The notes below the pieces were generated by a model that made no database searches, had not been told where the DNA came from, and saw nothing but the letters and a program-made list of their open reading frames with translations. From contig NC_081396.1 in NCBI RefSeq assembly GCF_030684315.1, forward strand, positions 3,968,001 through 4,032,000: a DNA stretch of 64,000 bases. Reading direction: 5' to 3'. A program made the position numbers and the translations under genes. Below are positions 29,560 through 61,444 of this stretch, in pieces (the first letter of the stretch is position 1; every line of letters starts with the position of its first letter). This stretch comes from Stegostoma tigrinum (lineage: Eukaryota).

Positions 29560-29652
29560 GGATGAAGGGTCTAGGCCCAAAACGTCAGCTTTTGTGCACC
29601 TGAGATGCTGCTTGGCCTGCTGTGTTCATCCAGCCTCACATTTTGTTGTCTT
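29560..29652 (+). mobile_element. Truncated PLE terminal fragment
   Basis: gatgaagggtctaggcccaaaacgtcagcttttgtg... (hammerhead core truncated and mutated). Confidence 0.8.
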
Positions 29653-30299
29653 ACTTCATATTTTATCCATTACAACACACGGAACGGCAATTGTTTATGT
29701 TGGTAGCTGTGAGATTGTATTGATAAATATATCAGTGGTAATGAAGATAAAGCAAATTGTGCAAAGGCCATTTCTTCTGCAGAGTTTGAAATCACAGCTA
29801 AAATCCTCACTTCATCGATGTCGTATTGGTAGCTGGCTGATACTACAGTTTGTTCCTGCGCCATGAGGAGAACAGTGCTGGAAGTCAGCCAATCTTAAAA
29901 GCAGAAACTTACATCGATCTGAATGCTTTAGAAACACTTGTTTGAACAAGGTGCAGTAGGTGTCAAACTGATGATGAAGCGCTGCGTGCCTGGCCTGTCA
30001 AACATAATGGGATAGTCCCAGGAAACAGCTATCAATGCAGTCAGGTAATTACGCCCAATTTGTTATTTCAACCTCTGAAAGGCATGGTTGACACTTGAAT
30101 GAAAACGCTCAGATAATTTCAGAGCCACCACTGATATTGAGTTGGCCAATGGACATCTGCAATCATCACAATTTAATATTGAGGTCCATAATTGGACCGC
30201 CTGATGATCTCATGTTATGTTCTTTATTCACGACCAAAACCCTGGCCCTGACATCACACGAGGTGCTTTCATCACAGCCAACCAATTTGCATTCACAAA

Positions 30300-30590
30300 T
30301 GACATGTTGTTGGGATAATAGTGCATTGATTTCTATATTCTTGAGAAATCAATTGTTTTTATCTACTGAACAGGGATACACGGACACTGTCTTAAAACTT
30401 CCTTCCCGACTAGATTTAAGTGTGAAACTTTGTAAATCCTTATTTTCCATCACATAATTAGAAAGACACTGCCTCGAGATTCTTGCCTGAATAGAATTAG
30501 GTATATGCTTTGTTAGTCTTTATCTTTCCGCACTCTGGTATGTGGAAATTGTCTCAAATAAGACTAAGTTGGGCAGCGTTTCCTCAGGTA
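30300..30590 (+). mobile_element. ERV 5' LTR, partial (U3 part only)
   Basis: Aligns by eye with 44715-45005 (shared cttaaaacttcc, aaactttgtaaatccttat, gtctcaaataag). Similarity stops before the TATA/polyA part; no clear primer-binding site seen. Confidence 0.8.
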
Positions 30591-30949
30591 ACTGGATTAT
30601 CCGGGAGGTTTGCGTCCTTCAGTTGCCGGGGTTCGTGTGCCTAGGTCAGGAAAGTGGAAAGTCCGGGAGGTTAGATTCCCCCGGTGGGTGGGGTCAGAGT
30701 CCTTAGGCCAGGAAAAAAAAAACTGCCTTAGTAAGCCTCGGGGTGTTCGATTCAGATTGGAAAAGTAGGATAAGTCTTCTGATGTAGGTTTCGGATAGTT
30801 AAAGTGCCTGTCTGTCTCAACCACCCTGCCTTAGGTTGGTTGTTAAGAGGGGAAATGCCCCACGCGAATGCTGGGTACTCGAAGTGGGTGCTGAGGATAA
30901 GGAGACTGGTGTTGCACACAGAAATATGTAAAAAGTAAAGGCACTAAAA

Positions 30950-33072
30950 ATGGGACAAATGTTAGATTAGTCTGGTGTCGGGACTCCTTTTCATCGGTTT
31001 TACCAGGATGACCCCGAAGAGGAAATAGAGTACCGAAGTCTGTTGGAATGGCTAAACAAAAAAAAAATGGAAAATGAGAATTGCCATTCGGTGGAACGTG
31101 GGATATTGATCGATGTACTAAAGTACAAGAGGCAATATCGACACGTAATGCGGGAAGTAAATGGAAACGGTTGATATCATCTCGGAAAAAAAAGAGAGCT
31201 GAAGAGCTGAATGAAACATCAAAAATGGCCAGTTGCGTGGATAATGCACGGAGGAAAGGGATTAGTGCATGTGATAGTAAGGGAAAACCTAAACCTTGGG
31301 AGATTTTTACGCCGCAGTGTCAGGATCATGCGATGAATGAACATGGCAGAGTTAAACAAGAAAGGCTGGAAAGGGAACGTTGGGACAAAAACCGGGGATG
31401 AAAGCTGCTGACAGAAGATAAAAAAAATCGGAGGTAACTCCTGACATACCTGGTGTGCCAATGTTTGTCAAAAATAATGACACAGGTAAGCAAGATGAGG
31501 AGAACTGGGGAAGGCACGCCTTGCCCATCGGGACTACTAACCCCGCCACAACTCGAACCATCCTTGACCAACCTACATCGAAAGGCACCGCAATACTGCC
31601 ATCAGTCTCAGGAATCGCCCGGAGCCCGATTACTGCCATTGTACACTGACCACAACAAACCTCCTACAACAGAATCTCCAAGTCCTTCAGAAATCAGTCC
31701 ACGTGAACATTCTGACAAACCCATGGCTTGGACAGACTCTAACTCCTGTCATAGTACGTCTAAGCCAAAACAGACAATCAGGAAACAAAATACGGGACAG
31801 ACCACAAGTGGACAAAAGGAGGGGGGTGCATCACTCTTTTAAAACCCACAGGGGATTGCTGAAAAAAATGTCAGCCCCGCATGCAGTTTCCTCAGCCCAC
31901 GAGTTCCTGTCTTGTGTCACCTCGCGATTCTGTGAGTCGTGAGAAGTATGTTAGTTCCGATTCACGGGCTGATGATGATGAACCTGAGGACAGTGCTTGG
32001 AAGAGACCCTCGGACACCCCTCCCCGAAAGAACGACCGCCAGAAAAGAAATCCACAATCTCCGAATCGTACAGTCCCTCACCTGAGCCCAACGCAGGGGG
32101 ATCAAAATACGATGCAGGCCGACACCTCTTGGAAGCTGCAGGAGATGTGTTTAATTATGCTAAGAGCCACGAGTAGAAAGACTAATCCTGACGACTTCAT
32201 AGGCTATATCCTGAGCACTATTCTGACGCACCAAGCCCCCCTGCAAGCCCTCTTTAGATGGCGCTGTATGGCTGTTACCCTCATTGAATTTTCTAGTTGG
32301 AAAATCCCCCTGGGAGACCGAGCTCCCCAAGACTGGGATGTTTTTATAAGTCCTGTAGCTGAAGGTCTTAAGCTACTAACCATTAAAGATCCCCTCAAGC
32401 GAACATTGCAGCAAGCAGTCGATGTTCCCAGAGTGTCAGAGTGCAAATCCAATCCCGGGGAGTGAGTTCTGGGAATGTTTCTGCTCCACCTGTGCCACTT
32501 ACTCTGGTGATACTGCCTACTTTGCAGGAAATCCCTCACCACAGTACAATGCTCTTTTGCTGCATTGTATACCTGAGGCTGTGGCGGTGGCTCTTCGTAC
32601 CAATAACATGGATTGGCCAGATAATAACCGTGCTCAAGTGGGAAGGGCCTTAACTTATTACCGGAAGGAATCCTTGCTGACCAGAGTCACATATGACATG
32701 GTGCAGCATCACCTGTGCCAGACCAGGTCCAGAAACCCAGCTCATCCAGCATTGGACTTCCAATTAGTGAGGGCATTTTACACCGAACCCCAGAGCTATT
32801 TTCCTGGCTGGGTCGACAATTATGGTAACGGTTTTGTCACTCATCCACACGGTCCTACTGCTCTTCACTATGGAGCACCATATGCACCCGCTCCACCGTT
32901 CCGGAGACCCAGTGCCGCTTTGCCGCGAGGCGCAACACCACACTCTACTGAGGGATGTTTTAACTGTGGCAGTTGGGATCAGTGGATGAGAACTTGTGCT
33001 CAGAATCAATGTCAAGGGCGAACACAAGGAAGAAGGCCACCGTTTTCAACAAATAATCCTTTTTCAGCCTGA
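30950..33072 (+). pseudogene. gag: ERV copy 1 gag (disrupted)
   Basis: Starts MGQ (myristoylation-type), has a matrix PFGGTWD motif, and ends with a nucleocapsid knuckle CFNCGSWDQWMRTC (H to Q) and TGA at 33070-33072. Confidence 0.85.
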
Positions 33073-36000
33073 CGAACTTCACCCCATAATCTGCACATTT
33101 TAAAGAGAGATCCGGAGGATCAACCTATTGTTAATCTAACTGCACAAAGGGTAGCAAGTTCTTTTGTGATTGTTACTGGGGCCAAGACACCTGTGTTGGA
33201 TGCATCATGTGTACAGCAATATTGGTTTACACTCTCACCCGTCTCAGTAAGCCTTAATGGACAGACTGGACAGGCAAACGCATACTCTTTAACAGAACCA
33301 TTGGCAGTTCAATTTGGCCCTGTAAACTGTATTATTTATTTTGACCAGACCCTCACGTTGGGAGTTAATTTAACCGGGAGAGATTTGTTTTGCCTTCTTG
33401 AAACTGAAATTCTGTGTCTCAACAAGGGCATTAATGTCAAAAGTGACCCGATTAAGCGACATTTTTGGGTTCATCGATCGCCACACTGATGAACGATTGA
33501 CTTATCTCTGTGAGATAGCACCCTTCTCCTTCAAATCCCTAGCCCTCAAGTTGACTTGTGTTATGACCCTACAGGCACTTCCTGTTAATTGGCTGGTATT
33601 TACCCCCTATCTAGGATCAGGTTTATCTGTTACTATTATCGAGTATATGGAGGGAAAGGAAGGATCAGCGTTTCAGGTGGAGGTGCCACCCCATCTATGC
33701 CATGAATCGTGTCTGGTATTCCCTTACCTCACACTGGCAGTGAGCACCGGCTATAAAGTCAAGTCTTTGGGATTTCTAGCGCACCTCTTGATCCAACAAT
33801 TATACGTGGAAGTGGAGTGTTATTCAGAGCAGGTGGCTGATGGTCTCATTAGATATTATAGTCATCATTTTGTTGTCTTTGGGCCATTACGTCGCCACCA
33901 TGCTCATCATAGTGCCTCTAAGGAGTCTTCTCCAGACCTGTGGTCTACATCCACACATGAGGTAGGATACACTCCGGTCACCATCGTGGGAGTGCGCTTA
34001 CTCTCAATACCTCAGTACCCCGTCAAACCTGAGACAGTGAAATGAATAACCTCCTTGATCATGTCGTTCCTCCAACCAGGTATATTGTTCCCTTGTCAAT
34101 TGCCTTGCAATACTCCTATTCTGCCCGTCCCTAAACCCAGCCGCCAGGAATGGCGACTGGTCCAGGACCTCAGACAAATAAATAAGATAGTGCGACCCTG
34201 ACATCCGATTGCCCCTCATCCTGCCACTATGCTTCGCAACATTCCCTTAGATGCGTGTGTCATCACCGTTTTGGACTTGCAACATGCATTTTCCATGATT
34301 CCCTTGTATCAGGGGTCTCAATATCTGTTTGTCTTTTCCTTTAAAGGACAGCAGGAGACCTGGATTTGTCTCCGCCAAAAGTTCATTCACTCGCCTATCC
34401 TAGTTTCCCACGTCTGGCACCGGCAGCTCCAAGATCTCTGAGTCTTGGATGGCTCCACTGTTATCCAATATGTTAACGATTTGCTCTTCGCAAGCCCATC
34501 ATAATCCAAAAATGTTCTGGATACGAACCGCCTTTTAAACACTCTTCAATCTTGGGCATATCTTATGACCACTGTGAAGGTTACGTGTAATCAACAGAGG
34601 GGGCCGTTCCCAAGGATTCTGCTCAGCGCCTGGGAACAAACGCTCACCCCTCAGTGCATTGCTCCTATTCTGATGAACCACGCCCATAACCCCAAAACAA
34701 GTAAGGGCCTTTTTAGGCTTGGTAAATTATTGTTGACAGTGGCTCCCTAATGTCCCTTTGCTTAAAAAAAAACTACCGACCCCTTTAGCTTCTTGAAAAA
34801 AACCCATAAAACCTTCACCCTCCCCGAGAAACAACAGTCTTTGCAGACTTAAAAGCAGATCTTGCTGCTGCCCCGGCTTGGGGAAGACCTTTACATGACA
34901 GACCTTTCAGGCTATATGTTAATGTTCTGGATGGGTGCGCCACTGGGCTATTGACACAGACTCGTGGCATGTGCAAACAACCGGTCACCGACGACTCTAC
35001 CTGCCTGGACTCTGTCGCACGTGGGCTTACACCTTTGTTCCAAGATTCTTCTTGCGATTTATACTTCAGTCACTACAGCCTCTAAAGTGATTCTCCACCA
35101 GCCACTTACTGTCTAAAACTCACATGCCATTGTCGCCATCCTCTCCTCCCACCAGACTCAACACCTCACCCAGGCACATTTTAGCTGCTACGAAGTCGCA
35201 CTCCTTAACAATCTGCTCTTGACATTCCCTTCCTGCTTCACAAATAACCCAACCACGTTTTTGAGCACCAATCTCCGATGAGTTTTTAGCACACCTGCAT
35301 GACTGCTTACGAAGGAACCAATTTCTAACATTTCTGCACCGGTACCTGACTGACTTCACGGTCCCTTCTCCGGATGTTATCCTGTTTGTTGATGGCAGTT
35401 CCTCCAAGTTGCCCTTGGGTAACACTCTGGATATGCAATTGTCGATGTTGCCTCCACATTAGAATCAATGGTGTTTGAGCCCCCGGTGTCCGCTCCGAAA
35501 GGAGAACTTTTTGTCCTTACCTTTGCTTGCATCCGAGCATCAGGGAAGTCAGCGAATATTTACACCAACTCTCAGTATGCCTTCAGAGTCTCCCACAACT
35601 TTGGCCAGTTATGGTGTCAGTATGGGTTTTTAACATCTTCAGGTTCACCCTTCCAACATTCCCCGTTTGTTAAAAACCCTCTCCAGACAATCCTCCTGCC
35701 TAACCATGTGGTTATTATCAAATGCGCTGCCCATGCCTCCGACGAATCCGTAGTTACTCAGGCAACACTCGGGCTGATCAGGCGGCCAAACAGGCAACTG
35801 CAGATCAAACCTTTATTGTTCCATGTACGAACAAGCAGGTGGTAAATCCAATGCCTCATTCGGACTAGATGGGCATGCCAGAAATAGCCACTGTTCAGCA
35901 CCTACAGGGCGATGCCCCTGCTTCTGAAAAGGACATTCGGACGGTGCATGGATGTTCGTTTTCTGCATCGTCAGGCCTTTGAATTACCCTCGTCGGCCAA

Positions 36001-37043
36001 GTGTGTCGACCTGTTGCTTTGTTACCAATGTTTGTTGACTGTCTGCATTCTGATACCTATGTTGGCAAGGAGGCAATGAGTGGTACCTTGTGGCACCCCG
36101 ACTGGCTGAGGCAGCCACCACACCCCCCCTGCCCCTGTCTCAAACAGCATCATTTCTCACATGCAAGCAAAACAATTTTGGTCTGGGGGAGACGTGCTCA
36201 CCAGGAAAAAGAATCAGGTGGACCGTTTCAATGCATTTAGCTGGATTTGATTGAATTACCTCGTGTAAATAGTTGTAAGTGTTGTCTTGTCATTGCAGAT
36301 TCATTCAGTAGGTGGAGAGAGGCTTTCACAATGACACATAACAAAGCCTCAACAGTAGTGAAGTTATTATTAACTGAAATAATGCCGAGGTTAGGAGTGA
36401 CTCGACAAATTAGTTCTGTCAATGGCATCACTTTGTAGGAAAGATTAATAAGGAGCTGTGTGACACGTTATGCATCCAGCAGCAATTCCACTGTTCATAC
36501 CACCCCTCAGTGTCAGGGATAGTGGAAAAAGAGAATGGAACGCTCAAAGCGAAATTGACCAAGTTGATATTAGAGACTGGTCTTAGCTAGTTAAAGGATT
36601 TGCCGCCAGCTTTGTGCCACACGCGAATAACAACCTATTCTACGACTGGACTCACAGCAACAGAAATAGTCTACGGCTGACCAGCAAAACACCCTGGGAT
36701 GCCAATACCAGCCCACCCACCCAAATTGACTTGAATGTGATGGCAGAAGAAATGCAAAGGTATATCCTGAAGCCAACATCGTCTCCAAAGTTTCTCCATT
36801 CACTGGTGAAGTGTATCTTTGGAACACATTTGCAGGCACTAGACCAAAACCTGAAGCACAAGAATCGCTCGACATGACGACAGATTGGCGATTTCGTACT
36901 TGTCCGAGATTGGGATCGCCCTAATCTTGGGCGCAGGTGGAAAGGGCCATTCTTTGAACTCCAACAGCTCTCTAAGTTAAAAGAATCACTGGATCCACCT
37001 CAGTAACTGCAAACGACAGATTCCCTCTTCGCTTTGCAATTAA
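33073..37043 (+). pseudogene. pol: ERV copy 1 pro-pol (protease, candidate 2H domain, RT, RNase H, integrase; disrupted)
   Basis: IVTGA (DTGA decayed), CNTPILPVPKP, WRLVQDLRQIN, LDLQHAF, QYVNDLL (YVDD class I type), LFVDGS, NIYTNSQYAF, LHSDTYVG, RWKGPF and WIHLSNCK. Confidence 0.93.
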
Positions 37044-37051
37044 CCATTTGA

Positions 37052-37860
37052 ATGAGGATTATTCTGATAGTGCATGTCCAGCAAACAGTCTCTTGCACAG
37101 AACACACGTCCAACTGCACGGGAATCAGATAACATGTTACCTGCTCCCAGGCTAAGAACGGATTCGTTTTCCTTCTTAATGAGACCTTCACAATTGCCAC
37201 TAAAATTTTGCTGGTGCTGTTTGCTGTTGGGGCCATTGGACACCTCATGGTCTCTTGTCCCCAATGAGCGTGGATTCAATGCCGAATTGCCACACGCTTC
37301 CTGAGCCAGGAGCTTTGTGATGCATGGCAGGATCCAATTGCCTTGGCCTCTTCCTTGTGTTATGGCTTCCTTGGAACTGTTAGCTTGGGAGGATCCCCGG
37401 GGTGGAGTGCGCAAATAAACCGAAATTACCTTATATGTTGACTCACCACCCTGGGAAACAGCACAATGAAAGCATTGGAGGCAGTCAACCAAGAATTTGC
37501 CGAACTTCATCTCTATGCTCAGTAAACCCGGTATGCAATGGACCATCAACAGGCTCAGCAAGGTGGAGCAAGGTACTATCATAGAGGACAAGTACATGAC
37601 CATGTTACCGATGAGTCCTCCCGTGTTACCCAGGCGATGCAAGCCATACAAGGGCTCTTGGAACAGTACAGAGAGGTGCCCTGACCGGGGCGGGGTTGCT
37701 CTTTCGGATGGCTTATTGGCAGGTCTTGTGTCTAATACCTGTTGCATGAGCTAGTTATTCTACAAGTTGTCATAGCGTTTGCTGTGTGTTTATTGTGTGC
37801 CTGTAATATTGATTCAGGCATGTGTTTGCCAGATCTGCAGCTCCTTTCTTGTCCCTGACA
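37052..37860 (+). pseudogene. env: ERV copy 1 env remnant (internally deleted)
   Basis: MRIILIV start; ELHLYAQ*TRYAMDHQQAQQGG resembles an immunosuppressive domain; hydrophobic TM region; homologous to copy 2 env. Confidence 0.7.
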
Positions 37861-37901
37861 TAAGTTAACATGAAATGATAAACGGAGGGAATGAGATGTT
37901 G

Positions 37902-38803
37902 TATCAGTGATAATGGGAACTGCAGATGCTGGAGAATCCAAGATAATAAAATGTGAGGCTGCATGAACACAGCAGGCCCGGCAGCATCTCAGGAGCACAA
38001 AAGCTGACGTTTCGGGCCGAGATCCTTCATCAGAGAGGGGGATGGGGTGAGGGTTCTGGAATAAATAGGGAGAGAGTGGGAGGCGGACGGAAGATGGAGC
38101 AATGGGAGAGAGATTCCCTGTGGTTGGTCCAGAGGGAGGAGGGTAACTTCTTCAGGTTAGGCATTCCTGGAAGAGGCTTCGCAGTGAGGTTAAAATTGCA
38201 TCAGTGATAATGGGAACTGCAGATGCTGGAGAAACCAAGATAATAAAATGTGAGGCTGCATGTACACAGCAGGCCCAGAAGCATCTCAGGAGCACAAAAG
38301 CTGACGTTTCGAGCCTCGACCCTTCATCAGAGAGGAGGATGGGGTAAGGGTTCTGGAATAAATAGTGAGAGAGGGGGAGGCGGACCGAAGATGGAGCAAT
38401 GGGAGAGTGATTCCCTGAGGTTGGCCCGGAGGGAGGAGGGTAACTTCTTCAGTTTAGGCATCCCTGGAAGAGGCTTCGCAGTGAGCTTAAAATTGTATCA
38501 GTGATAATGGGAACTGCAGATGCTGGAGAATCCAAGATAATAAAATGTGTGGCTGGATGAACACCGCAGGCCCAGCAGCATCTCAGGCGCACAAATGCTC
38601 TCTCCGATTGCTCCATCTTCGGTCCGCCTCCCCCTCTCTCCCTATTTATTCCAGAACCCTCACCCCATCCCCCTCTCTGATAAAGGGTCTAGGCCCGAAA
38701 CGTCAGCTTTTGTGCTCCTGAGATGCTGTTGGGCCTGCTGTGTTCATCCAGCCTCACATTTTATTATCTTGGATTCTCCAGCATCTGCAGTTCCCATTAT
38801 CAC
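37902..38803 (-). repeat. Tandem 297-bp PLE-derived hammerhead-containing repeats (2.3 units) plus one inverted unit
   Basis: atcagtgataatgggaactgcag recurs at 37903, 38200 and 38497. Hammerhead cores on the minus strand at about 38006-38033 and 38303-38330; inverted unit 38598-38803 has a CTGATAA-mutated core. Confidence 0.92.
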
Positions 38804-38809
38804 ACGGTG

Positions 38810-39160
38810 GATGTGAGTTTGGTATTGCACACTACTTTTCTTCCAAATTTTAAATGTCTCTCTTCCAGTTGGTCTGTTGGTTGGGGTGTGGTGGGAGAGG
38901 TGGTGTGAAGGGTTGATTATTTCCATGCCTGGAGATAATTGCCCTCCATTTATTTATCTGGTCATTCAATAATTGATGCTGCAAATGATGACAGCCATTT
39001 TGCATAGAAATAGACAAATAACATTCAAAGGCAGCTTGTTCCATTAATTGATGCAGAAAATAGAATGTCATACAAGCGTTACAGTAAACATTGTAGAGCT
39101 GGCATTGACTGCTCTCATGCAGAGTTAAATGCTCATATCAAGGAATTAATTATTATCCAC
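38810..39160 (+). repeat. Diverged paralog of host sequence 27158-27505
   Basis: Shared blocks gtattgcacactactttt..ccaaattttaaatgtctctctt, tagaaatagacaaataacattca and ttatccac. Confidence 0.88.
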
Positions 39161-39336
39161 CGTTTCGTAGATGCAGTGCCTCTTTGCCACGAGATGGAAC
39201 ACCACGCTCTGCTGAGGGATGTTTTACCTGCGTCAGTCAGGATCACTGGATGAGAACTTGTCCCCAAAATCAACGTCAAGGGAGACTCCAAGGAAGAAGC
39301 CAAACCTTTTCCACTAATAATCCTTTTTTAGCCTGA
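39156..39336 (+). pseudogene. gag: ERV copy 2 gag 3' end
   Basis: Intact CCHC knuckle CFTCVSQDHWMRTC; homologous to 32892-33072; TGA at 39334-39336. Confidence 0.85.
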
Positions 39337-42300
39337 CTATCTTCATCCCATAATCCGCCCTTTTAAACTATGGATCCGAAGGATGAACCTATGGTTAATA
39401 TAACTCTACAATGTGTTGCAATGCCTTTTGTGACTGATACTGGGGCCGCAACATCAGCACTGAATGCTTCATGTGTACAGAAATATGGGTTTAAACTCTC
39501 ACCCGCCTCAGTAAGCCTTAGTGGACATACTGGGCAGGCAAACGCATACCTTTTAACAGAACTATTGACAGTCCAATTTGGCCCTCAAATCTGTGTTATT
39601 CAATTTGCCCAGACCCTCACTTTTGGAGTTAATTGAGTGGGGAGAGATTTGTTGTACCTTCTTCAGATTGAATTTCCCTGTCTCAACGAGAGCATTAGTA
39701 CAAAAAGTGACCAGATGAAGCGACAGTTTCGGGTTCATCGATCGCCACAATGGTGGATAGTTGACTCGTCTCTCCGAAATATCACCCCTCCCCTCAGATC
39801 CCTAACCGTCATGTTACCTAGTGCTATGACACGACAGACGAGTCCTGTAAATTGGCTGCTATTTACAATCCCTATCTGGGATCAAGTTTATCTGTTATTA
39901 TTGTAGGGGATATCAAGGGAAAGGAAGAATCAGTGTTTCTGGTGGAGGTGCCACCCGAACTGTGGCACTGATCGGGCATGGTATCCCCTTACCTCATATT
40001 GACTGTGCACACCAGCTATAAGACTAAGTCCTAGGGATTTCTCGTGCACCACTTGATCCAACAGTCAGACCCAGAAGTGAAGGGTTATTCACAGCAGTTG
40101 GCTGATGCTCTCATTACGTATTATACTGACCCTTTTGTTGTCTTTGGGTCAATACATCTCCACCACCCTCGTCATAGTCCCTCTGAGGAATTTTCCGCAG
40201 ACCTGTGGTCTGCTTCCACACATGAGGTTGGATGTATTCCAGTCACCCCCATAAAAGTACAGGGCATCCCGGTAGCGCCCCTACCCTTGATACTTCAGTA
40301 CCCCTCAAACCCGAGGCAGTGGAAGGAATACCTCCCTGATCAATTAGTTCCTCTGTCAAAGTATATCGTGCCCTTGCCAAATGGCTTGCAATCCTCCATT
40401 TCTGCCTGTTCCTAGACACGTCCTCCAGGAGTGGCGACTGGTCCATGACTTCAGACAAACAAATAAGATAGTCCCACCCTGACGTCCGGTTGTCGCTAAC
40501 CCTGCCACGATCTGTCTAGCATCCCGTCGGACGCATGTGCTTTCACCATTGTGGACTTGAAAAATGCATTCTTCGCTGTTCCTTTGCATAAGAGGTCTCA
40601 GTATCTGTTTGCCCTTACATTTAAGCGCCAGCACTAGACCCGGACTCGTCTTCGCCGAGGGTTAAATCACTCGCCTACCAGCTCCAAGATCTCCCACTCT
40701 TGGATGGCTCTACACCTTTCCAATACGAGAACGATCTGCTCCTTGCAAGCCCATCATAATCCATTAATGTTGTGGATACCAACAGACTTTTAAACGCTTT
40801 CCAATCTTGGGGATATGCTGTGCCCACTGTGAAGGTTGCACGAAATCAACGGCAGGTGTAGTTCCTGGGAATTCTCCTCAGCGCCTCAAAATGAACGCTC
40901 ACCACTGAGCGCATTGCTCCTATTCTGATGAACCCTGCACACCACCCCAAAACACGTGAGGGCCGTTTTAGGCTTAGTAAAATATTGCTGACCGTGGCTC
41001 CCTCCTCACTTGCTTACTAAACTATTAGCCCCTTTGGCTTCTTTTGAACTCCCAATAAACTTCAACCTCTCGAACGAAAAACAGTCAGCCTTTGCAGACT
41101 TAAAAGCAGCCCTTGCTGCCACCCCAGCTTTGGGAAGACCTTTATATGACAGGCCATTCCAGCTATACGCTAATCGTCTGGATGGGGACGCTACTGGGGT
41201 ATTGACACAGACTCACAGCATTCACAAACGGCCCGTTGCCTCGTACTGTCCCCGTCTGGACTCTGTAGATCAGGGGTAACGCCCTTGTTCCCATATTCTT
41301 ACAGTGATTTATTCTTTCGTCACTGCAGCCTCTAATGTTACCATCCACCAGCCACTTACTGTCTATACCTCACATGCCATTGTAGCCCTCGTCGCCTCCC
41401 ACCAGACTCAACACCTTACCCAGGCTCGTTTAAGTCGCTACCAAGTCGCACTTCTTAATAGCCCCCTCTTGGCATTCTCTTTCTACTCCGCAATTAACAC
41501 AAACACCGTTTTGAGCGCCCCCACCCCCACAAGATGAATTCTTAGCACCCCCTCATGACTGCTCACTTAGGAACCAACTTCTAACATTTCTGCACCCATA
41601 CCTTACTGACTTCCTACTCCCTTCTCCGGATGTTATCCAGTTTGTTCATTGCAGATCTTCCATGTCCCCCTTGGGTCGCCCTCTCTCTGGATACACAATT
41701 GTCGATGCCACCTTCACATTAGAATCACTGGTGTTTGAGCCGCCTGTGTCTGCTCAGAAAGCAGAACATTTTGCCCTGACCTGTGCTTGCATCCTAACCT
41801 CAGGGAAGTCAGTGAATATTTACACTGACGCTTGCTATGCCTTTGGAGTCTCCCACCACTTTAGCCACTGATGGTATCAGTGTGGGTTTTTACCATTCTC
41901 AGGTTCACCCATCCAGAATTCCCTGTTTATAAAAAAACCTTCTCCAGGCAATCCTCCTTCCTAAACAAGTGGCTATTATCAAATGTGCTGCCCATACTTT
42001 TGATGATTCCATAGTTACACAAGGCAACAGTAGGGCTGATTAGACGGCGAAACAGGCTACTGCAGATCAAGCTTTTATAATGCACTCTATGAACAAGCAG
42101 GAGGTAAACTGAATGCCTCCTTCGGACAAGGTGGGCATGCCAGATATAGTCAATGTTCAGCACATGCAGTGGGATGTCCCTGCTTCCGAAAAGGAAATTT
42201 GAAAGTTGCATGTATGTTCACATTTTGCGTCTTCAGGCATTTGGATTACCCTCGTCTGCCAACTGTGTATACCTTTTGATTTGTTACGAATGCTTGTTGA

Positions 42301-43325
42301 CTGTCTGCATTCTGACACTCACGTTGGCAAGGAGGGAATGAGAAGTATTATGCTCCGTACCTTTTGGCACTCTCAACTGGCTGAGGCAGCTCCCCAGGCT
42401 CAAAGAACATCATGTTTAACATGCCAGCAAAACAATGTTGGTCAGGCGGTGACATGCCCACCAGGAAAGAAAAAAAAAAAAACAGGTGGACCGGTTGAAT
42501 GCATTTAGCTAGATTTTATTGAATTGCCGAGTGTAAATAATATGTGTGTTGTTGTGCCATTGCAGATTCATGCAGTAGGTGGATAGAGGCTTGCGAAATG
42601 ACAAACAACAAAGCTTCCACAGTAGTGAAGTTATCATTGGCTGAAATAATACCGAGGTTTGGAGCGTCTCACCAAATTAGTTCAGACAATGGCACTCACT
42701 TTGTAGGAGAGGTAAATAAGGAACTGTGTGATGCGTTATGCATCCTGCAGCGATTCCCCTGTCCATACCACCACCGGGCAACAGGGATAGTGGAAAGAGA
42801 TAATGGAATGCTCAAAGCAAAATTGGCCAAGTTGACGTTAGAGACCAGCCTTAACTGGTTAAAAGTTTTGCCACCAGCTTTGCACCACACGCAAATAACA
42901 CCCCATTCTATTACTGGACTCTCGTCAGCAGAGGTAGTCTCTGGTCGACACAGCAGAACACTCTGGGATGCCAACACCAGCCCACCCAACCAAATTGCCT
43001 TGAATATGATGGGAGAAGAAATGCAAAGGCACTTCCAGCAATGAACATGTCTCAAAAGTTTCTCCATTCACATTTGAAGTATGCCTTTGGACCACCTCTG
43101 CAGACACCAGACCAAGACCTGAAGGACCAGAATCGCTCTTCATGACCAAAGATCGGAGATTTCATTTTTGCCTGAGACTAGGATCGCCCTGAGCGCGGAG
43201 GGAGGTGGAAGGGGACACTTCAGGTGCTTCTTCAAATTCCAACACCTCTTTAAGTTAAAAGACAGAATCGCTGGATCCACCTCAGTAACTGCAAACGATG
43301 TGTTCCGTCATCAGGCTGCAATTAA
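39337..43325 (+). pseudogene. pol: ERV copy 2 pro-pol (disrupted)
   Basis: FVTDTGA protease, VDLKNAFF, QYENDLL, SAQKAE, NIYTDACYAF, HSDTHVG..CLTC (HHCC), SSDNGTHF, GIVERDN. Confidence 0.93.
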
Positions 43326-43333
43326 CTTTTGGA

Positions 43334-44690
43334 ATGAGGATTATTCTGACAGTGCATGGCCAGCAGGACAATCTGTTTTATAGAACACACATCCAGCTGC
43401 ATGGAATTTGGATAGCGTGTTACCCGCTACATGGTCCGTAAAGGCATTATTTGTGGCAACAGCAGGCTGGAACCATAACCAGCTCTGTCAAGTAGAGTAT
43501 TCTTGTAAAACTTGCAGAGGGGAGAGGGGAACTTGGACGAGAGGTCTGTAGGGTAGGTGTGTGGAATTAATAGGTAATGACCCCTCACACTGTATGAGCA
43601 TCAAACCTCGGAATTGGAAGGAAGGGGCTAACTGGACCAATCCGAATAGCTATCTCTTTTGCTTCTATGGAACTGGGACTTGTTGTGTGCATGCTGTAGT
43701 CATTAATCATCCCCAAAATATTTCCTGGCCCGATTGGTGAGTAAAAGAAACTGCACAACTAAAGGAGGACTGTTGAACTACCCCAGTTTAGAATCTATGC
43801 CAATAACTATGACCCCGGACATTCAGTGGATTTGTGGGGATCTTAATAGCACCCATGTAGGAACGAAACACGGGACGTTTCCATTTAACACCACAGGCTT
43901 CCATCCATATAAGGGTCAGTCCTCCTGAATACCTATCAAGGAATACTTGAATCTGTGATCTGCTACCAGGCTAAGAAGGGATTCATTTTCCTGCTTAACA
44001 GGAAATTCTCGACTGCCACTCAAATTTTCCCGGTGCTGTTTGCTGTTGGGACCATTGGGCCTATATCGTTCCCTTGTCCCCAAAGACCATTGACTCTACA
44101 GTGAATTGTCACACGCTTCCTGAGCCGAGAGTCATGTCTGCATGGCAGGACCTGATTGCTTTGGGCACGTCCTTGATTTCTGGCTTCCTGGGAACTGTGA
44201 GCTTGGGATGGTCCCGCGGGGTCGGGGGCGCACATAATCCAAAATTACCTTATATGTGGACTCACCACCCTGGGAAGCAGCACAATGAAAGCATTGTAGG
44301 CAGTGTACCAATAATTATCCGAACTTCAGGTCTATCCTCAGCAAACCCGGTATGCAATGGATGATCAACTTTCTCAGCAAAGAGGAGTATGTATTATCCA
44401 AGAGGACAAGTGTATGACCCATGTTACCGAATGAGTCCGAAAATATTACCCACGCTATGCAAGCCATACGGGGCACTTGGAACAGTTCAGAGAGGGATCC
44501 TGACCGTGGTTGGGTGGAGGGTTATTGGGATGGCTTATTGCCAGTTCTTGGGGCTCATACCTGTTACGTGGGTTAGTTATTCTAAAAGTTGTCATAGCTG
44601 TTTGCAACATGTTTATGTTGTGCCTGAACTCTTGCCACACACATGCATTTGATGGACGAGCAGTTCTCTTCTTGGCCCCAACATAGATTA
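43334..44690 (+). pseudogene. env: ERV copy 2 env remnant
   Basis: MRIILTV start, Cys-rich SU-like stretch, fusion-peptide-like WQDLIALGTSLISGFLG, and QQRGVCIIQEDKCMTHV (ISD/Cys-loop-like). Confidence 0.72.
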
Positions 44691-44714
44691 TCATGAAATG
44701 ATAAAAGAAGGGAA

Positions 44715-45406
44715 TGAGATATTACTGGGATAAAGTCACATTGATTTTCTATATTTTCGAGAAATTAATGGTCTTTATCTGCTTAACCAGAGGTATGCAG
44801 ACACCGCCTTAAAACTTCCTGCACGACTAGAATTAGGTGGAAAACTTTGTAAATCCTTATCTTCCTACGCATAAGTAGAAAAGCACTGCCTTAAGCTTCC
44901 TGACTGAACAGAATTCGGTATAAATATTTTAAGTCTTTATCTTCCTACACAGGGGTATATGGAAACTGTCTCAAATAAGGTGAGACGGGCAGCATTTGTC
45001 GACATGTGAGACTTCTGAAATCCTCTGAAGAATGTCACATTTGTTCCTGTGTAAGGGGCCAGGGCTCTGACTTTTGTTCAAGCCAGACACTTCAGCGGTT
45101 TGAAATTACATTCTTTCGCTTCAGCAACTTGAAATCGCCTCCTCCTATGAGCAGTCACTTCATGAATGCTCAATACTGTATCCTTCTCTCTTTATGTTTA
45201 TGTTGCAGTAATTGATTGTGTATCATGTCATTGTCTGTATAAAAAGAGGGAATTGTCCGCTGCTCGGGGAAAATCACTTACGAGAATCTGCACTCGGTGC
45301 CAGGTTGAGTACAGTGATCCTCCACGGATTGTACTTTCTTTGTAATAAAGAATTTGTGTCTTTTCTAAACTAGCTTGTGTCTTGCTATTGCATCAATTCC
45401 GTGACA
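44715..45406 (+). mobile_element. ERV 3' LTR
   Basis: Preceded by polypurine tract aaaagaagggaa (44703-44714); TATAAAA at 45238, AATAAA at 45344; ends ...ccgtgaCA. Exact start is 44715 or 44720. Confidence 0.82.
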
Positions 45407-46519: not shown

Positions 46520-47920
46520 GTACTGCATCTGTCGTGGTTGTACAGGTCCACACGGGAGTGACAGTCTTGGTTGCAGTGACTGCATTTGAAGACAAGCTCC
46601 TCCAGTGTTGCCGTGTTGCTGTCTTTCCATCGAGTGTGCTTTTCCTCAGCGTCAAGCCTCCGTTTCTCCTATCGTCGCTCCAGCCCTCTGTGTAGTTCCC
46701 GCCTCCAGCATGAGCAATCATTTGTGACATCTCTCGAAGTCCAGGTTCATTGACTTCATGTCCCTTTTGCAGACGTGTTTGAGACGAAGATGAGGTCGTC
46801 CTCGTCCTCTCTTGCTGATGGCCAATTCCCCATACAGCACAATTTTTGGGATCCTCCCGTATGGCATATGATGCATGTGACCCAACCTGTGGAGGCGATG
46901 TTGTTGGAGTAGGGTAAAGATGCTGGGTACCTGGGCACGGGTGAGGACTTAGGTGTTGGTGACTCGGTCGGTCAACTTGATGTCCAGAATGTGTCTCAGG
47001 CTGCAAAGGTGAAAAACATTGAGACACCGCTCTTGACTGGAGTAGAAGCTCCAAGTCTCGCTGCCGAAAAGTGGTGTGATGAGGATGCACATCCAGTAGA
47101 TTGTAATCTTGGTGTTCATAGTCACCTTTTTGTTCTCCCAGGCTCTCTTGGCCAGCCTGGCGAATATGGAGGCTGCACATCCAATCCGTCAGTTGATCTT
47201 GGAGTCCAGGGAGAGACTGTCTGTGATGGTGGAACCGAGGTATGTGAATTCGTGGACTACTTCCAGCTCGTAGTTGTTGATGATGATGATAGAGGGGTAC
47301 TCAACGCCTTGACCCAGCACTTTGGTCTTCTTCAGGTTTAAATTTCTGGCAGTCTTTTGAGAGGTAGTCCATAACGAGCTGCAGTTGCTCTTCAGTATGT
47401 GGTGCCAACCCTGCCTCGTCTGCAAACAACATGTCTCCAATGAGCCCTTCACAAACCTTGGATTTTGCCCTCAGCCAGGACAGTCAAAACAGCCTTCTGC
47501 CTGATCCGTTGTGGAGGTAGGCACCATTAAGTAATGTTGCAAACACGTGTTTCAGCATGACTGCGAAGAAGATGCCAAACAGGGTGGCGGCAAGCACGCA
47601 GCCCTGCTTCACACCGCTGTGGATGTTGAAAGACCCCGAAGAAGAGTCATCATATTTAACAACGCTTTTCATGGCCGTGTAAAATGATTGGACTATTCTG
47701 AGGAGTCTCGGAAGACAACTAATACTGGCGAGGATTTCGAACAAGCTGTCTCTGCTTGCAAGGTCGAATGCCTTCGTGAGATCAATGAAAGCGACACAGA
47801 GTAGTTGTTCTTTGCTCTCGGCATTTCTCCTGTAGCTGTCAGCGGGAGAAGATCACATCAGTTGTGGAGCGTTCTGACCTGAAACCGCACTGGGATTTGG
47901 TGTATATTCGTTCAGCGAGT
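46520..47920 (-). mobile_element. RTE-clade LINE, 3' half, degenerate
   Basis: GFRSERSTTD, AFIDLTKAFD, GVKQGCVLA..LFGIFF, NLKKTKVL and LEVVHEFTYLGSTI are typical RTE ORF2 motifs. Confidence 0.9.
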
Positions 47921-54232: not shown

Positions 54233-54624
54233 TCATTGGCAAGAATTAATGGTGTCCATCAGTGCAAGTGAAATATTCACAAAACTTGGTTTACCACTTG
54301 ATTTATCAACCGTTCTGTTGATGATCTTCAATGGAATTGCTTCATGTCCCACCACACAGGAGTAAGAAGCACCGCTGGCCCACTCCTCCGCTGCAATGGA
54401 TAATAGGCTGTACAGGAAGAAGGAGGTGTTATCACTCTCAGCCGTCACCTCGGTGTTCTTGTAGTTACTGGGATTAATTGGCTTGTCATTGGTTGTCCAT
54501 TTGACAAAGATCTCTTGGGGCCTGAAACCTCTCACTAAACAGGTGAGCGAAACAAACTTCTGTGCTGAGATGTCTTCTGTCGTTGGTAGGAGGACGGACA
54601 CCACTGGCTCCAGAGGATTTATCA
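54233..54624 (-). CDS. IGHM: IgM heavy chain CH4 plus secretory tailpiece
   Basis: [40 protein letters not shown]|[20 protein letters not shown] (tail N-glycan site NIS, penultimate Cys). Internal donor G|gtaaa after 54295 for TM splicing. Confidence 0.97.
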
Positions 54625-54884
54625 CTGCAGAATATTTGAAATAAATCAATTTTTTTTATAAATCAAGAAGCAATCTTGGAATTTCAACGAATATTCAAAC
54701 ATTCCATGCTAAGTTTGGGATTTATTCACTTTTATTTTTTTAAAGGACCACAATGGTATCCGTTCTATTCATTAAAAATAAAGTTTTGTTCAAAAGTGAC
54801 CTCGATATTATCAGTCCAAAACTGAGAAATTTCGTCCATTTGTCATTACTCATGTTTACATCACAAAACTTCAGATCTCTTCCT

Positions 54885-55145
54885 AGATAATAAAGTCTGA
54901 AGCTGAATGAACACAGCAGGCCAAGCAGCATCTCAGGAGAACAAAAGCTGACGTTTCGGGCCTAGACCCTTTATCAGAGAAGCTGAAGTTTCGGGCCGAG
55001 ACCCTTCATCAGAGAGCTCTCTGATGAAGGGTCTCGGCCCGAAACTTCAGCTTTTGTGCTCCTGAGATGCTGCTTCGCTTGCTGTGTACATCCAGCTTCA
55101 CACTTTGTTATCTTGGATTCTTCAGCATCTGCAGTTCCCATTATT
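54885..55145. mobile_element. PLE terminal foldback with three hammerhead-derived cores inside the IgM CH3-CH4 intron
   Basis: Cores at 54950-54977 (-), 54985-55012 (-) and 55021-55048 (+); perfect palindrome 54980-55053. Confidence 0.92.
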
Positions 55146-55342
55146 CCAGATCTCTTCCCAATTTGTTTGACTTATCACAACTGAATATCCTTTAATTCAT
55201 TTTTTAAAAAAAATCTGTTACTTAGCTCTCATGCCATCATTAATCCTCCCAATGGTGTTACATTTCCAATCAAAGCATTTTAACAATGTAATTGGGTCTA
55301 AATTACACATGGGATACTTCATGCATTCATTTCTTCACTCAC

Positions 55343-55648
55343 ATTTCTGCTTGTGGATAGAGTGTCTCAGTGGAGTTGGTAAATACTGATTGTTCACCAC
55401 GCATTCAAATTCATCGCCGCTCAGCCAGGATTCAGTCGAAATATCTAACTTGCTGATCACACCTTCGGAATGTTCTCCCGACTGATCAACAATCTCTGAT
55501 TTCAGCGTCTTCTTGTCATGTATCCAGGTGAAGTTGGCTTCAAAATGAAGATTGTACGCAATGCAGGTTAACGTCACTGTTGCCTGCAGTAAGACCTGTT
55601 CAACTGGGGGCGGTAGTATTTTGGCTGTGTAATCATGGCACTCTGAAA
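55343..55648 (-). CDS. IGHM: IgM heavy chain CH3 exon
   Basis: VSECHDYTAKILPPPVEQVLLQATVTLTC..W..FECVVNNQYLPTPLRHSIHKQK; 306 nt, phase 1-1, ag| and |gtgagt. Confidence 0.96.
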
Positions 55649-56914
55649 CTACAATGGAGCAGAAGTCAGAATCAATGAAAAAATGTCTCAGAAGAAACAA
55701 AACACCAGTGTTCAGTCTATTTACTCACAACGTAAATAAACCACCTTTGCGAGGGCAACTTCTAATGATTCCTGCAAGGATACATACTTTTGTTGATTTA
55801 TTTTGAGTTGTGAAACATTATTGATTACCTATGAAATGCCCTGTGTAATTATTACCAAAGAAAATTACCTTTGCAACAAGTGAATCCTGTGTAAAACAAG
55901 CAAACAAAAAAGAAAAATATCATCACTACCACGATTTAACCCATGGAGTAATTTCCTTTCAGATTTCTTGTCTCAGATAAGCCCAACTATTGATAATTTT
56001 AGCAAAACTTATCTCGAATCAACATAATGAAATCATTTTTACTTTCATGAGACGTCTTTGCAAATGCCGCTGGTAATGGTGAGTGGAAAATCAAATAACA
56101 TTTCTTTGTAAACCTGCATTCAAACGCAGTTACTCTCTTATTCCTCATGTAATTATGGAAATTTTCCTATGTTACAGGAGTGGTGAGCTTTCACGGAAAT
56201 TCTATTCAATGTAATTTAACGTAGTGGAAAATAAGTTGTATTATTGATGTGAGATCGTGCTTTAAAGTAGCTCATGAAATAGTATTCCTCGTTTGCCGAA
56301 TTTGGAGTAGACCTGAAAACGAAACACAAAATACAGCATCGGAAATAGAGTTGGACACTCCCCCCGCCCTCAGCCTTCCCTACATCAGTGAGATAATGAA
56401 TGTGTTCAAGTTTCATTTTATTTAGCCACCTGCAATTTTAAATGTCTTCACAGATCAAAAAATAATCAATCAAGGGGAGGTACATCCTGACGTTCAAGTC
56501 ACCTGATATTTGCACTGGCAAATTTTAGACTTCCACTACTCACTGCGTAAACGTATCCATCATGAAACCAGGCTAAAGTATGTTAGCTCTAATGCTTGGA
56601 TAATTCATTCCGATTGTGGCATTCCCACCAGAATTTATTGTCCTGCCACATCCACGAATGACAGAAAATGTCTAAAGCAGGCTCGATGAGATCAAGTTTA
56701 TCTTTGTTAATAAAATTTTGTTCACACTTGGTCTTAGCTTTGGTGTCATGATTGAAGTTAAAGAGCTCTGAAACATGTTAAAAAATATCGTTCAATTCTC
56801 AACGTCAACAGATAGTTCCTGATCTTGGAAGGAAGTATTGAACGCATTATTTTTATTTTCAAATATTAGTCTTCATATTTTCCTGTGTCATCTTCTGACC
56901 TCAAAACTGAAAGA

Positions 56915-57260
56915 TATAGGAACAGAACAAGAAGATACAGTCAATCAAGTCTGCTCTGCAATTCGACCGTGGCTGATATGTTTCTCAACTCCATTGTCCC
57001 TCCTGCTATCCATACTAAGCACCAGACAATCTAACTCTGTTCTTTTTGTTTCAATGACTTGAAACTCACAGCCCTCTGGGGCAGTGAGTTCCATGGATTT
57101 ATCACTCACTGGCTAAAGATATTCCTCTTTGGTCCAGCTCTATCTATTCCACCCTTTGACTCTGAGGCTGTGTCGTCGGGTCATAGTCAACCTACTATTG
57201 AAAACACCTTCTCCACATCCAGCCTACCTCGATGCTTCAGTGTTTTCTAATTTCAACGAG
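56915..57260 (-). mobile_element. CR1 3' fragment in the CH2-CH3 intron
   Basis: The reverse complement resembles the CR1 C-terminus and 3' UTR (ccatggaactcactgccccagagggctgtg). Confidence 0.7.
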
Positions 57261-57594
57261 AACACTTCTGGACAGCTTCCATCCCCACAACCCCCATTAT
57301 CCTTGAGGCCATGACCAGCAAAGGATTCTGTATTCCAACTCCCTCTCCAAGTATTGTCAAACAATAAATGAATCCAATTAACTGTCATATGTCGTCAACA
57401 TAAACAGAAGCACCTATCTCTGATTTGAATTCTGAGCAATGCTGAGTTACAACTCAGAATACAATGAGTTGCACATTGTATGATCTCACATTAGAACTTT
57501 TTCCATCCTTTTCACTCAGCTGGATATATTAAGTGTATTGGATTTGCATCAACAGTCAGAATTAGTGTTCTTTGTGTTGGAATGCATCTCTTAC

Positions 57595-57906
57595 CCTGTG
57601 GTCCAGTGATGTTCTGACGTTGAATGAGCCCTTCGTGATCGACCTGGCACGTATAGACTGCTCTGTTGAACCATTCACTATAAGGCACTCTCAGTTGACT
57701 GGTTGTTGAGAAGTTTCCATTTGTTTCACACACGGCAGAAGTGAAGAAACCAGATTTCACCTCTCCTCCATTCTTCAACCAAGTCACGGAGATTTTCTTT
57801 GGTTTGAAGTCAAAGATTGAACAGACAATGGTTGCAACTTTTCTGCTCTCAATTTCTTCACTGGAACTCACAGTGAGGAGAATAGTTGGATGGGCAACAC
57901 CGTTAC
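57595..57906 (-). CDS. IGHM: IgM heavy chain CH2 exon
   Basis: (C)NGVAHPTILLTVSSSEEIESRKVATIVC..VTWLKNG..AVYTCQVDH..NITGPQ; 312 nt, phase 1-1, ag| and |gtaaga. Confidence 0.96.
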
Positions 57907-58399
57907 CTTTAGAAAACAGATCGTGAAAATTATCTGATTTGAGAACAAATATTGTCAGTTCTTCACTTTCATTGCTTATTGTGGTTAGTCGATACATTAC
58001 AAGGATACTATTTGTGCAGAATACAGCAAAATGTGTCATTCAGGCAGAAAGATCAGCAGGTTGATATCAAGGTCCAAAATTGGAAGAAACAGCAAGTGCT
58101 AAGTATGGTGCAGAAATTATACATCAGTCAAATCATTGAAAGGATTCTGGCGAGTTGAAGAGAAAAAAAATGAGAAAATTAAGTAATTGACATCACGGAG
58201 ATATGTTGAGAGAGTGGCAGGGCACATTATTCCACGAGATGTAGCCTTCAGGTGAGTCACAGGAAGTTATAAAATGGCGGCGGGGGGTGAGGGGTCATGT
58301 CTGTCACAATATTGAGCCGGATGCTTTCAGTAGTCAAGAGAAATGATCGTAGATACCTCCTCAAATGAAGACAAATAAGAAAGACTTTAAAAACTAAAA

Positions 58400-60110
58400 T
58401 AAAGCAAAACACCTGTTGGGAGAGCAAGAAAGGCTCCACAGTAGGTCCAATTGATGTAAGTGCAGATACGTCAGCAAATTTTCATAAGTGTACATAAGTA
58501 GGGTAATGATTGTAAGGATTTAACCATTGCTCAATGTAGGCTGAGCATTCAATATTTAAAATATCCAGAAGGAGTGGAATTGTGAAATTGAGCATTTTTA
58601 ATACAGTACATAGGAGGCCTTGTAAGTGAGGTTGAACCAGGACCGAGCTTTAATTCATGACGCCGAAAAAGTGCTTAATGTATCAAAGGAGAAGCATGTT
58701 GCAGAGAATCATCACAAATTCATTACATTCGATCTTGTTCTGGAAAGCAATAATAATCGGCCTGCACACGAATTATGAAAAATGTGAAGGCCAAATTTAA
58801 AATGATCGGGTGCGCTTTGACCACAGTGAACTGAGAACGGACATATAATGGTAAATGTAAGTGGGAGCAGGAGGATGCATTCATGGAGGAAATATAAATA
58901 CTGAAAGGCCAACGTGTTCCAACAAATTAACGACTTGTGATGAAAAATACAGTGAGCCTTGGACATCAAAAGTCATGCTGAATTATATAAAGAAGCAACA
59001 GAAAAGGCTGATGGCATGTGCCGAATGTTTAAAACAATAGAAGCCCTCATGACGTACAGAACGTGCAAGGGGAAGTTTTAAAAGAGAAATTAAGAGAGAG
59101 AAACAAAGCATAAAATTATATTGGCACTATATTGGAATTTTAAAATCTAAAGAGTAGTGTTACAATTTGATTAATGACAGAAGGATAACAACAGAAACCA
59201 TAGGGCCCATTAAGTGCTACAGTGATATTATTTGCGTGGGCTAACATCACATAGGTTATATCATAAATGAATGCATTTTGTCGGAGTTTGCTATGAAAGT
59301 CAAGATGCGGGTATAGAAATCATGGACACGGGTTGTGATGTGCTTTTAGAAATCTGCATTCGAAGATTGGATGCTCTGTGTTGTATTCTGAGCCCGATGA
59401 AATGTCTCCAAGGCTGTTGAGTTACGACAAGGAAGAAATGGTTGAGGTGATGGCAATAATTTCAATTTCTCCTTTGGCCTCAGCCGATAAGCCAAATGAC
59501 TGTGGGTCAGTAAATATAGTACCATGGAGCAAAAGGGAGCAAATTATAAACCATGACATCTTGGGACAGTCAAACTACGCTGAGTCGTAAGGAAAAACAT
59601 TGGAAGCAGTTCAGAGAAACACAATTAATCTTCTTTTGGAAGAGTTTCATAAACAGAAAGAATTCTCGGAAAATTTTACTGCTGGGAAGCCATGGCTTAA
59701 GACCTCGAAGGGATTTTTCAAAGACTAACGAGGTTGTTCGATGATTGCAAAGCTAAGAGGCAATGGGATCTGAGGAAACTTGATTGGATCCAGAACTGGC
59801 TGAGTGGCAGAAATTGGAGGGTGATGGTCATGGTGTGTTTGTGTGATTGGAATTCTATGCCGTGTTGAGCTCTGTGGGCTTCAGCAGAAATAGCCTTGCT
59901 GTTTGTAATGTATACCAGCAACTTAGATTTGAATCCAGAATGTTTGGCCAGAAGTATCGCAGATGGAATGAAAATTGTTGACCTGGAAGTCTTGACCTCA
60001 AAGATAATAAAACATTGGAACTTTTTTTTAAAATAAAGGCTTGCTCGATAGGCTGATCATGACAAATGGAAACCATTCTGGGTAAGTGTGAGGTGATGCA
60101 TTCATGCATG
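58400..60110 (+). mobile_element. Highly decayed CR1 ORF2
   Basis: Remnant motifs (PDEMSPRLL, WIQNWLSGR, GKCEVMH) across frames. Confidence 0.65.
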
Positions 60111-60119
60111 CACATCGAC

Positions 60120-61030: not shown

Positions 61031-61111
61031 GATTATATGAAAAGTGTTATGAGTAATGCCCTATTCACATAAATCACACATATCTGTTTACCCCGTTCCC
61101 ACAGCACTTAC

Positions 61112-61408
61112 ATGGCATTCCAGTGCTCTTGTCGGACTCGCTGTGTCGAACCTCACAGATAATTTTTTCGCATTCTGTATCCGACCCGGTGACCGCTATC
61201 TGACTGCTCAGTGTGTAAGTGCCCTTCTTGTTTCTCACCGATGGGTACGTCAGAACTCCAGTCGTGATCAGCTGCCCATCTTTCTTCCAGGTCACACTGC
61301 TGGTGTCAGGGGAATAGTCCAATGCCAAACAACCAAAAATCACAGAACCATCAGTGTTGTGTTGCTCACAGGAGGCTAGTCCATAAAGTATCGGGGAAGA
61401 TGGTGACA
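61112..61408 (-). CDS. IGHM: IgM heavy chain CH1 exon
   Basis: [71 protein letters not shown]; 297 nt, phase 1-1, ttctttcccag| and |gtaagt. Confidence 0.96.
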
Positions 61409-61444
61409 CTGGGAAAGAATGCCGGAATAAGCATGTTAGAAAAT

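Follow-up and report, generated by a model that had tools for sequence, protein, structure and literature searches.

The window, that is, the whole 64,000-nucleotide stretch of Stegostoma tigrinum DNA analysed here, carries two decayed endogenous retrovirus (ERV) copies on contig C55 (Table 1). The ERV gene order, comprising gag, an in-frame stop, protease, RT, RNase H, and integrase, corresponds to an epsilon-like (class I) layout. The gag of copy 1 was matched by tblastn at 32461-32652, and Pfam RVP gave E values of 0.052 (below the cut-off) and 7e-4 for the proteases of copies 1 and 2, respectively. The peptides on which an earlier, sequence-only reading had based its proposal of a 2H phosphoesterase domain between protease and RT were located as claimed, with SPQVDLCYD at the site at 33547, FPYLTLAVSTGYKVKSLG at 33725, and PDLW, the RT N-terminus, at 33932 in copy 1, and PNRHVT*CYD at 39810 in copy 2.

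Table 1. Retroviral features of the window (positions are those of the window)
Feature	Position	Strand	Remarks
Whole copy 1 stretch (LTR-like part, gag remnant, pol, 3' region)	29651..37902	+	Shares about 92% identity with the single provirus of each of three other C55 units checked
LTR-like repeat	30298..30581	+	78% identity to 44713-44997; boundaries approximate
Degenerate retroviral aspartic protease region, copy 1	33115..33405	+	In frame behind the gag stop; tblastn with skate Pol
Predicted 2H/CNPase-like domain of ERV copy 1, broken	33475..33904	+	Residues 1-144 of the L007 model projected onto the window
Motif-1 site, copy 1	33547..33558	+	QVDL, without HxT/S
Motif-2 site, copy 1	33725..33736	+	YLTL, without HxT/S
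Copy 1 region coding for RT, RNase H, and integrase, interrupted by stops and frame breaks	33932..36707	+	Pfam RVT_1 E 1.8e-11; tblastn with skate P0007, residues 161-1204
ERV copy 2, late gag to 3' LTR-like part	39156..45233	+	78% identity with copy 1
Broken counterpart of the domain in ERV copy 2	39738..40169	+	Site 1 reads HVT followed by a stop, site 2 reads YLI; stop codons at 39762, 39819, 39969, and 40032

From the GRD motif of the protease to the NTP motif of RT, copies 1 and 2 count 243 and 249 codons, respectively. The corresponding distance is 240 residues in an intact skate Pol and 299-311 in four teleost-type proteins, and 127 and 137 in two newt relatives that lack the domain. 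The insert between protease and RT is real. Its net excess over the newt relatives is about 110 codons, against the about 150 extra codons proposed earlier, and the folded domain has about 144 residues and in copy 1 runs to about 33904 rather than ending at 33830. The newt proteins P0027 and P0029 were rejected as carriers of the domain, having been matched via the protease only, and P0010 was dropped as a repeat-protein false positive.

In copy 1 the domain is a dead relic that encodes no enzyme, because its motif sites read QVD and YLT, lie 178 nt apart, and share the stretch with four stops in the first frame (33487, 33490, 33511, and 33586). HxT/S is thus absent from both positions that the sequence-only reading had marked in copy 1, and its spacing of 'about 55 aa' corresponds to no continuous reading, since the frame breaks between the sites and the two quoted peptides stand in different frames; across the family, the sites most often lie 180 nt apart. 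As evidence for the motifs, the window copies yielded the expected His at site 1 of copy 2 only, since site 2 of copy 2 is Tyr and copy 1 has neither His, leaving one His between them. The stops, the frame break, and a dN/dS near 1 ruled out copy 1 as a co-opted host gene.

The motifs were instead found in the wider family. A DNA search of the host's own genome returned 40 matches, and the 30 best were taken as loci; among these loci, HxT/S was present at site 1 in 22/30, at site 2 in 21/30, and at both in 19/30. Tyr occupied site 2 in seven of the 30, all on contig C55 and including both window copies. When the same genome was searched at the protein level, 126 matches were obtained, with several falling in each locus, and a more distant second ERV family with the domain came to light (L061-L065, on C34, C19, C14, C22, and C10), which is 30-36% identical to the unbroken family copy L007 in four aligned rows and groups with skate and Heptranchias elements in the RT tree. 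Database proteins of Leucoraja, Amblyraja, Mobula, Scyliorhinus, Heptranchias, Chiloscyllium, Narcine, and several teleosts also carry the domain, and skate P0007 is an intact protease-domain-RT-RNase H-integrase chain. In an alignment of 65 proteins, from which P0001, P0002, and P0010 were excluded beforehand and to which the two newt proteins did not align, HT/HS was found at site 1 in 45 of the 50 proteins covering it, at site 2 in 58 of 60, and at both in 40 of the 46 covering both sites, the intact skate Pol included. All these counts lean upward, as near-duplicates were counted and motif-bearing rows had served to build the profile. The sequence-only reading would have been refuted by the absence of any 2H profile or fold match, or by intact relatives lacking His at both positions; a fold match was obtained, as shown below, and intact relatives keep both His. 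The sequences that keep the motifs share no more than 19-44% identity with the skate domain, and the residue at position +5 from the first His is aromatic and nearly invariant across relatives. When an unbroken family copy was shuffled, two HxT/S motifs 55-95 aa apart arose in 54/20000 cases. By sequence, the domain of the ERV family has the motif pair that defines the 2H superfamily, namely two HxT/S each followed by a hydrophobic residue. The Chiloscyllium and Narcine proteins P0031, P0033, and P0035 have a teleost-like version of the domain, so cartilaginous fish have at least two distinct versions.

Searches with established profiles gave no sign of the domain. The Pfam 2H families matched neither window copy (three frames each), none of 14 stop-free family stretches, and none of 20 database relatives; the Pfam CNPase model PF05881 matched no ERV copy or relative scanned and, when run against the genome, found only the host CNPase gene on contig C41. 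A word-seeded protein search recovered no relative among 230 candidates, PDB sequence searches with one family copy and with the first profile returned no 2H match, and a phage tblastn gave one chance match only (E 5). The domain profile had a sole match among PDB sequences, human CNPase (E 0.79), whose two His motifs line up with those of the profile. In an ESM feature search, the top match of L007 was the tRNA_lig_CPD cluster (0.96), whereas the skate domain reached only 0.81-0.82.

Models of the two unbroken natural domains, both built on 17-sequence alignments, had pLDDT values of 92 (L007) and 90 (skate), and predicted a two-lobed 2H fold. With Foldseek, the list against the PDB was filled by CNPase catalytic domains (best E 3.7e-6), and fungal Trl1 (6u05) followed at E 9.7e-5. 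In VIA, the L007 model matched CNPase at Z 14.7 (rmsd 2.6, 140 aligned) and Trl1 at Z 12.3, and the next family, in a group with bacterial and plant CPDases, rotavirus VP3 (6.9), and Acb1 (6.7), reached only Z 7.1. The skate model, compared with 48161 chains, matched CNPase at Z 13.0 (rmsd 3.6, 139 aligned) as the sole match at Z >=8, the rest scoring 6.9 or less. The nearest fold in both predictions is thus CNPase or the Trl1 CPD, and not the LigT-like enzymes, despite an identity to CNPase of 13-16% and a motif spacing of 60 vs 79 in CNPase. Nor do the models place the domain closest to the viral 2',5'-PDE and cGAMP PDE enzymes and their relatives (ns2, VP3, AKAP7, Acb1); VP3 scored Z 6.5-6.9 and Acb1 5.7-6.7 across both models, MHV ns2 5.2 and penguinpox cGAMP PDE 4.9 with the skate model, and AKAP18 4.6. 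In each of the two models motif 2 is followed by a helix (96-109) that comes after a strand (85-90); by the order of elements, this helix may be equivalent to CNPase alpha7. The earlier proposal that the ancestral virus family encoded a 2H phosphoesterase domain is borne out by the two HxT/S in most copies and by the CNPase-like fold predicted for unbroken natural copies.

The dN/dS values, calculated among nine stop-free loci with 12 of 36 pairs saturated, were 0.10-0.42 between different subfamilies or families where dS was measurable, while of five close pairs four lay at 0.59-0.79 and one at 0.33. Copy 1 gave 0.64-1.13 against five C55 paralogues (one on 31 codons only) and 0.86 against copy 2. 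The domain was thus constrained during virus replication and has been drifting since insertion. Its occurrence under purifying selection in several cartilaginous-fish ERV lineages shows that it was long kept in Pol rather than captured once. In an RT tree of 20 rows, unrooted and comprising fish and amphibian ERV proteins only, without WDSV, WEHV, or an outgroup, copy 1 fell in a starred clade of nine (100/98) with Mobula, skate, and Heptranchias elements, apart from the main teleost clade. By sequence and predicted structure, the domain belongs to the known 2H/CNPase-like kind of fish retroviruses, here in a cartilaginous-fish ERV lineage, a placement that had been foreseen and that agrees with the skate, ray, and shark relatives carrying the domain as well as with the RT clade; the IgM-like exons of the window likewise speak for a cartilaginous fish.

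The shared Tyr at site 2 and a shared flank ruled out copies 1 and 2 as independent witnesses of the domain. Six loci resembling copy 1 were found on C55, spaced 115-119 kb apart over C55:3417585-4001940. Three of the five other units were checked, and each holds a single provirus with about 92% identity to copy 1, behind which comes sequence that matches the downstream flank of copy 2 at about 79%; the flanks common to these three units extend into the last immunoglobulin constant exon. Together with the site-2 Tyr and the neutral divergence, this makes a single old insertion, co-duplicated with host IgM-like gene units, the best account of the two copies, which would be its paralogues. Cartilaginous fish have a multicluster IgH layout, and co-duplication of the provirus with IgH clusters is likely because the flanks shared among units reach the last constant exon. 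The provirus copies could thus date the expansion of the IgH clusters. In the window, four immunoglobulin C1-set exons were recorded on the minus strand at 54236-61445 among 104 open stretches scanned; the two tested matched IgM and other heavy-chain constant regions, and the ERV lies downstream of this gene. At 37900-39156 the 92%-type unit, with copy 1, meets the 79%-type unit, which comprises copy 2 and the flank downstream of it; this junction is full of short inverted and tandem repeats and has the look of a rearrangement by which two paralogous units were joined. A separate reverse transcriptase fragment at 47487-47852 on the minus strand (Pfam RVT_1 E 7.5e-11) lies in a stretch missing from the three other checked units and is likely a later LINE insertion.

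Considering these results, we propose, with a probability of roughly 0.65, that the stretch is the decayed remnant of a predicted CNPase-type 2H phosphoesterase in the Pol of an epsilon-like retrovirus, likely opening 2',3'-cyclic phosphates to 2'-phosphates. According to PMC4643303, His309 of CNPase activates water, His230 protonates the 3'-O, and the product is a 2'-phosphate; Phe235 and Tyr168 bind the substrate, and helix alpha7 is described as CNPase-specific and tied to stereospecificity and substrate range. The aromatic residue of the viral domain at +5 from the first His corresponds to Phe235. Fold likeness to CNPase alone does not fix the substrate, and CNPase-type chemistry is probable because both motifs, the aromatic at His+5, and a predicted helix behind motif 2 occur together. 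Catalysis would proceed as in CNPase, with one His activating water and the other protonating the leaving 3'-O, and the substrates would most likely be products of host RNases, either RNA ends bearing a cyclic phosphate or 2',3'-cyclic nucleotides. In stop-readthrough Gag-Pol, Pol domains are made in small amounts and packaged with RT. The position of the domain in Pol behind an in-frame gag stop suggests low-level synthesis and packaging with RT, and for WDSV stop suppression has been predicted (PMC3185560). The domain may thus have entered virions as part of Gag-Pol, and the opening of a cyclic-phosphate end would free a 3'-OH next to RT, which might allow the healing of damaged primer tRNA or genome ends. 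A broader scenario, in which fish retroviruses of both cartilaginous and bony lineages have an active CNPase-type Pol enzyme that is packaged with RT as a counter-defence, to mend primer tRNA and genome ends cut by nucleases or else to remove a nucleotide-based immune signal, is put forward only tentatively; if true, no retroviral enzyme that repairs RNA or degrades a second messenger would have been shown before it.

The function towards which the sequence-only reading leaned, that of an immune antagonist degrading 2-5A or cGAMP, like ns2, VP3, and the poxvirus and phage cGAMP PDEs, is weaker than the cyclic-phosphate reading and in our view unlikely. Such enzymes belong to the same superfamily and are present in the fold lists, and some RNA-virus 2H domains target 2-5A according to PMC9503650, yet VP3, Acb1, ns2, and the penguinpox PDE score far below CNPase (Z 5-7 vs 12-15 for CNPase and Trl1). 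The host has OAS1_C matches at two places, namely about four OAS-like genes clustered at C34:15626912-15723185 and one more at C3:87247874-87255175, and an elephant shark OAS is listed in PMC6307210. RNase L was not detected in the host genome by a limited search, in which both KEN-domain loci found were IRE1, a weak argument against a 2-5A target. Furthermore, a Pol-encoded domain made in small amounts would be better suited to work inside the virion than to clearing a cytosolic messenger.

It is improbable that the domain was kept mainly as a binding module or decoy for host CNPase, with catalysis secondary. Host CNPase, whose gene is present, is the closest fold; CNP is listed as binding HIV-1 MA and inhibiting particle formation (PMC7471995); and the two newt ERV relatives without the domain suggest that it is dispensable. 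Both catalytic motifs are nevertheless conserved across the divergent relatives, and the identity to CNPase is low for a surface mimic. Still less credible is the hydrolysis of ADP-ribose 1'',2''-cyclic phosphate or a related NAD-derived cyclic phosphate, as by plant CPDase, which appears in the fold lists at Z 5.7-7.0, half the CNPase score. Macro domains are reported from the same group of fish ERVs in PMC4977317, but Pfam reported no macro domain in the Pol proteins scanned, and the models predict a putative counterpart of helix alpha7, which PMC4643303 links to the substrate range of CNPase. That the stretch is a meaningless spacer with motifs by chance deserves almost no credence, since the lack of both motifs in copy 1 and of any Pfam match is set against the motif conservation, the shuffle rate, the purifying selection, and two high-confidence models that both point clearly to a single fold.

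Among known systems, the CNPase-type reading finds its closest solved fold in vertebrate CNPase (PDB 2xmi, 1woj; PF05881; Z 13-14.7), with which the viral domain has in common the two HxT/S, the aromatic residue at His+5, and, judging from the order of elements in the models, probably the helix after motif 2. CNPase has about 215 residues vs about 144 in the viral domain, which lies inside a polyprotein and has no Pfam match. The cyclic phosphodiesterase of fungal Trl1 (PDB 6u05; PF08302) follows at Z 12.3, though the ligase and kinase domains of Trl1 are absent beside the viral domain. Rotavirus VP3, MHV ns2, Acb1, and penguinpox PDE are likewise virus-encoded 2H enzymes but reach Z values of only 4.9-6.9, and by predicted fold the viral 2',5'-PDEs and cGAMP PDEs would represent a different branch of the superfamily from the ERV domain. 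A 2H domain in WDSV is related after Mazumder et al. (2002) in PMC9503650. The walleye epsilonretroviruses (WDSV A4GTG3 and WEHV-1 Q9WHI8) were the top viral fold matches of both models (E 8e-9 to 1e-5, TM 0.68-0.75), as whole entries labelled 'Envelope polyprotein' without an aligned range. The domain is the same as that of the walleye retroviruses, for which the earlier reading had mentioned one in pol; here, by contrast, it lies in endogenous, decayed elements of a cartilaginous fish.

Ray-finned fish have CNPase-encoding epsilon-like ERVs (after Basta et al., 2009, in PMC4977317). Teleost ERV Pol proteins (Takifugu, Sarotherodon, mormyrids, Salarias), which may differ from the elements of Basta et al., carry a homologous domain with both motifs between protease and RT. 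Their motif spacing is 63-69 vs 60 here, the protease-RT stretch here is about 60 residues shorter, and in the RT tree copy 1 sits apart from them, grouped with elements of rays, skates, and sharks in a starred clade. The section of PMC4977317 on cartilaginous fish makes no mention of the domain, a term search of the main text of the shark ERV paper PMC4422223 found no phosphodiesterase, CNPase, or phosphoesterase, and the accessible part of PMC3185748 holds nothing on the domain. A literature search that covered few subscription papers returned no functional test of the domain and no report of it for cartilaginous fish, though Mazumder (2002), Basta (2009), and Fodor and Vogt (2002) may list shark elements or processing sites. 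The domain is thus known computationally in fish retroviruses, and the window copy adds little beyond host range, the extension being a further host lineage. The fold narrows the question of function to CNPase-type chemistry, and the intact natural records make its testing cheap.
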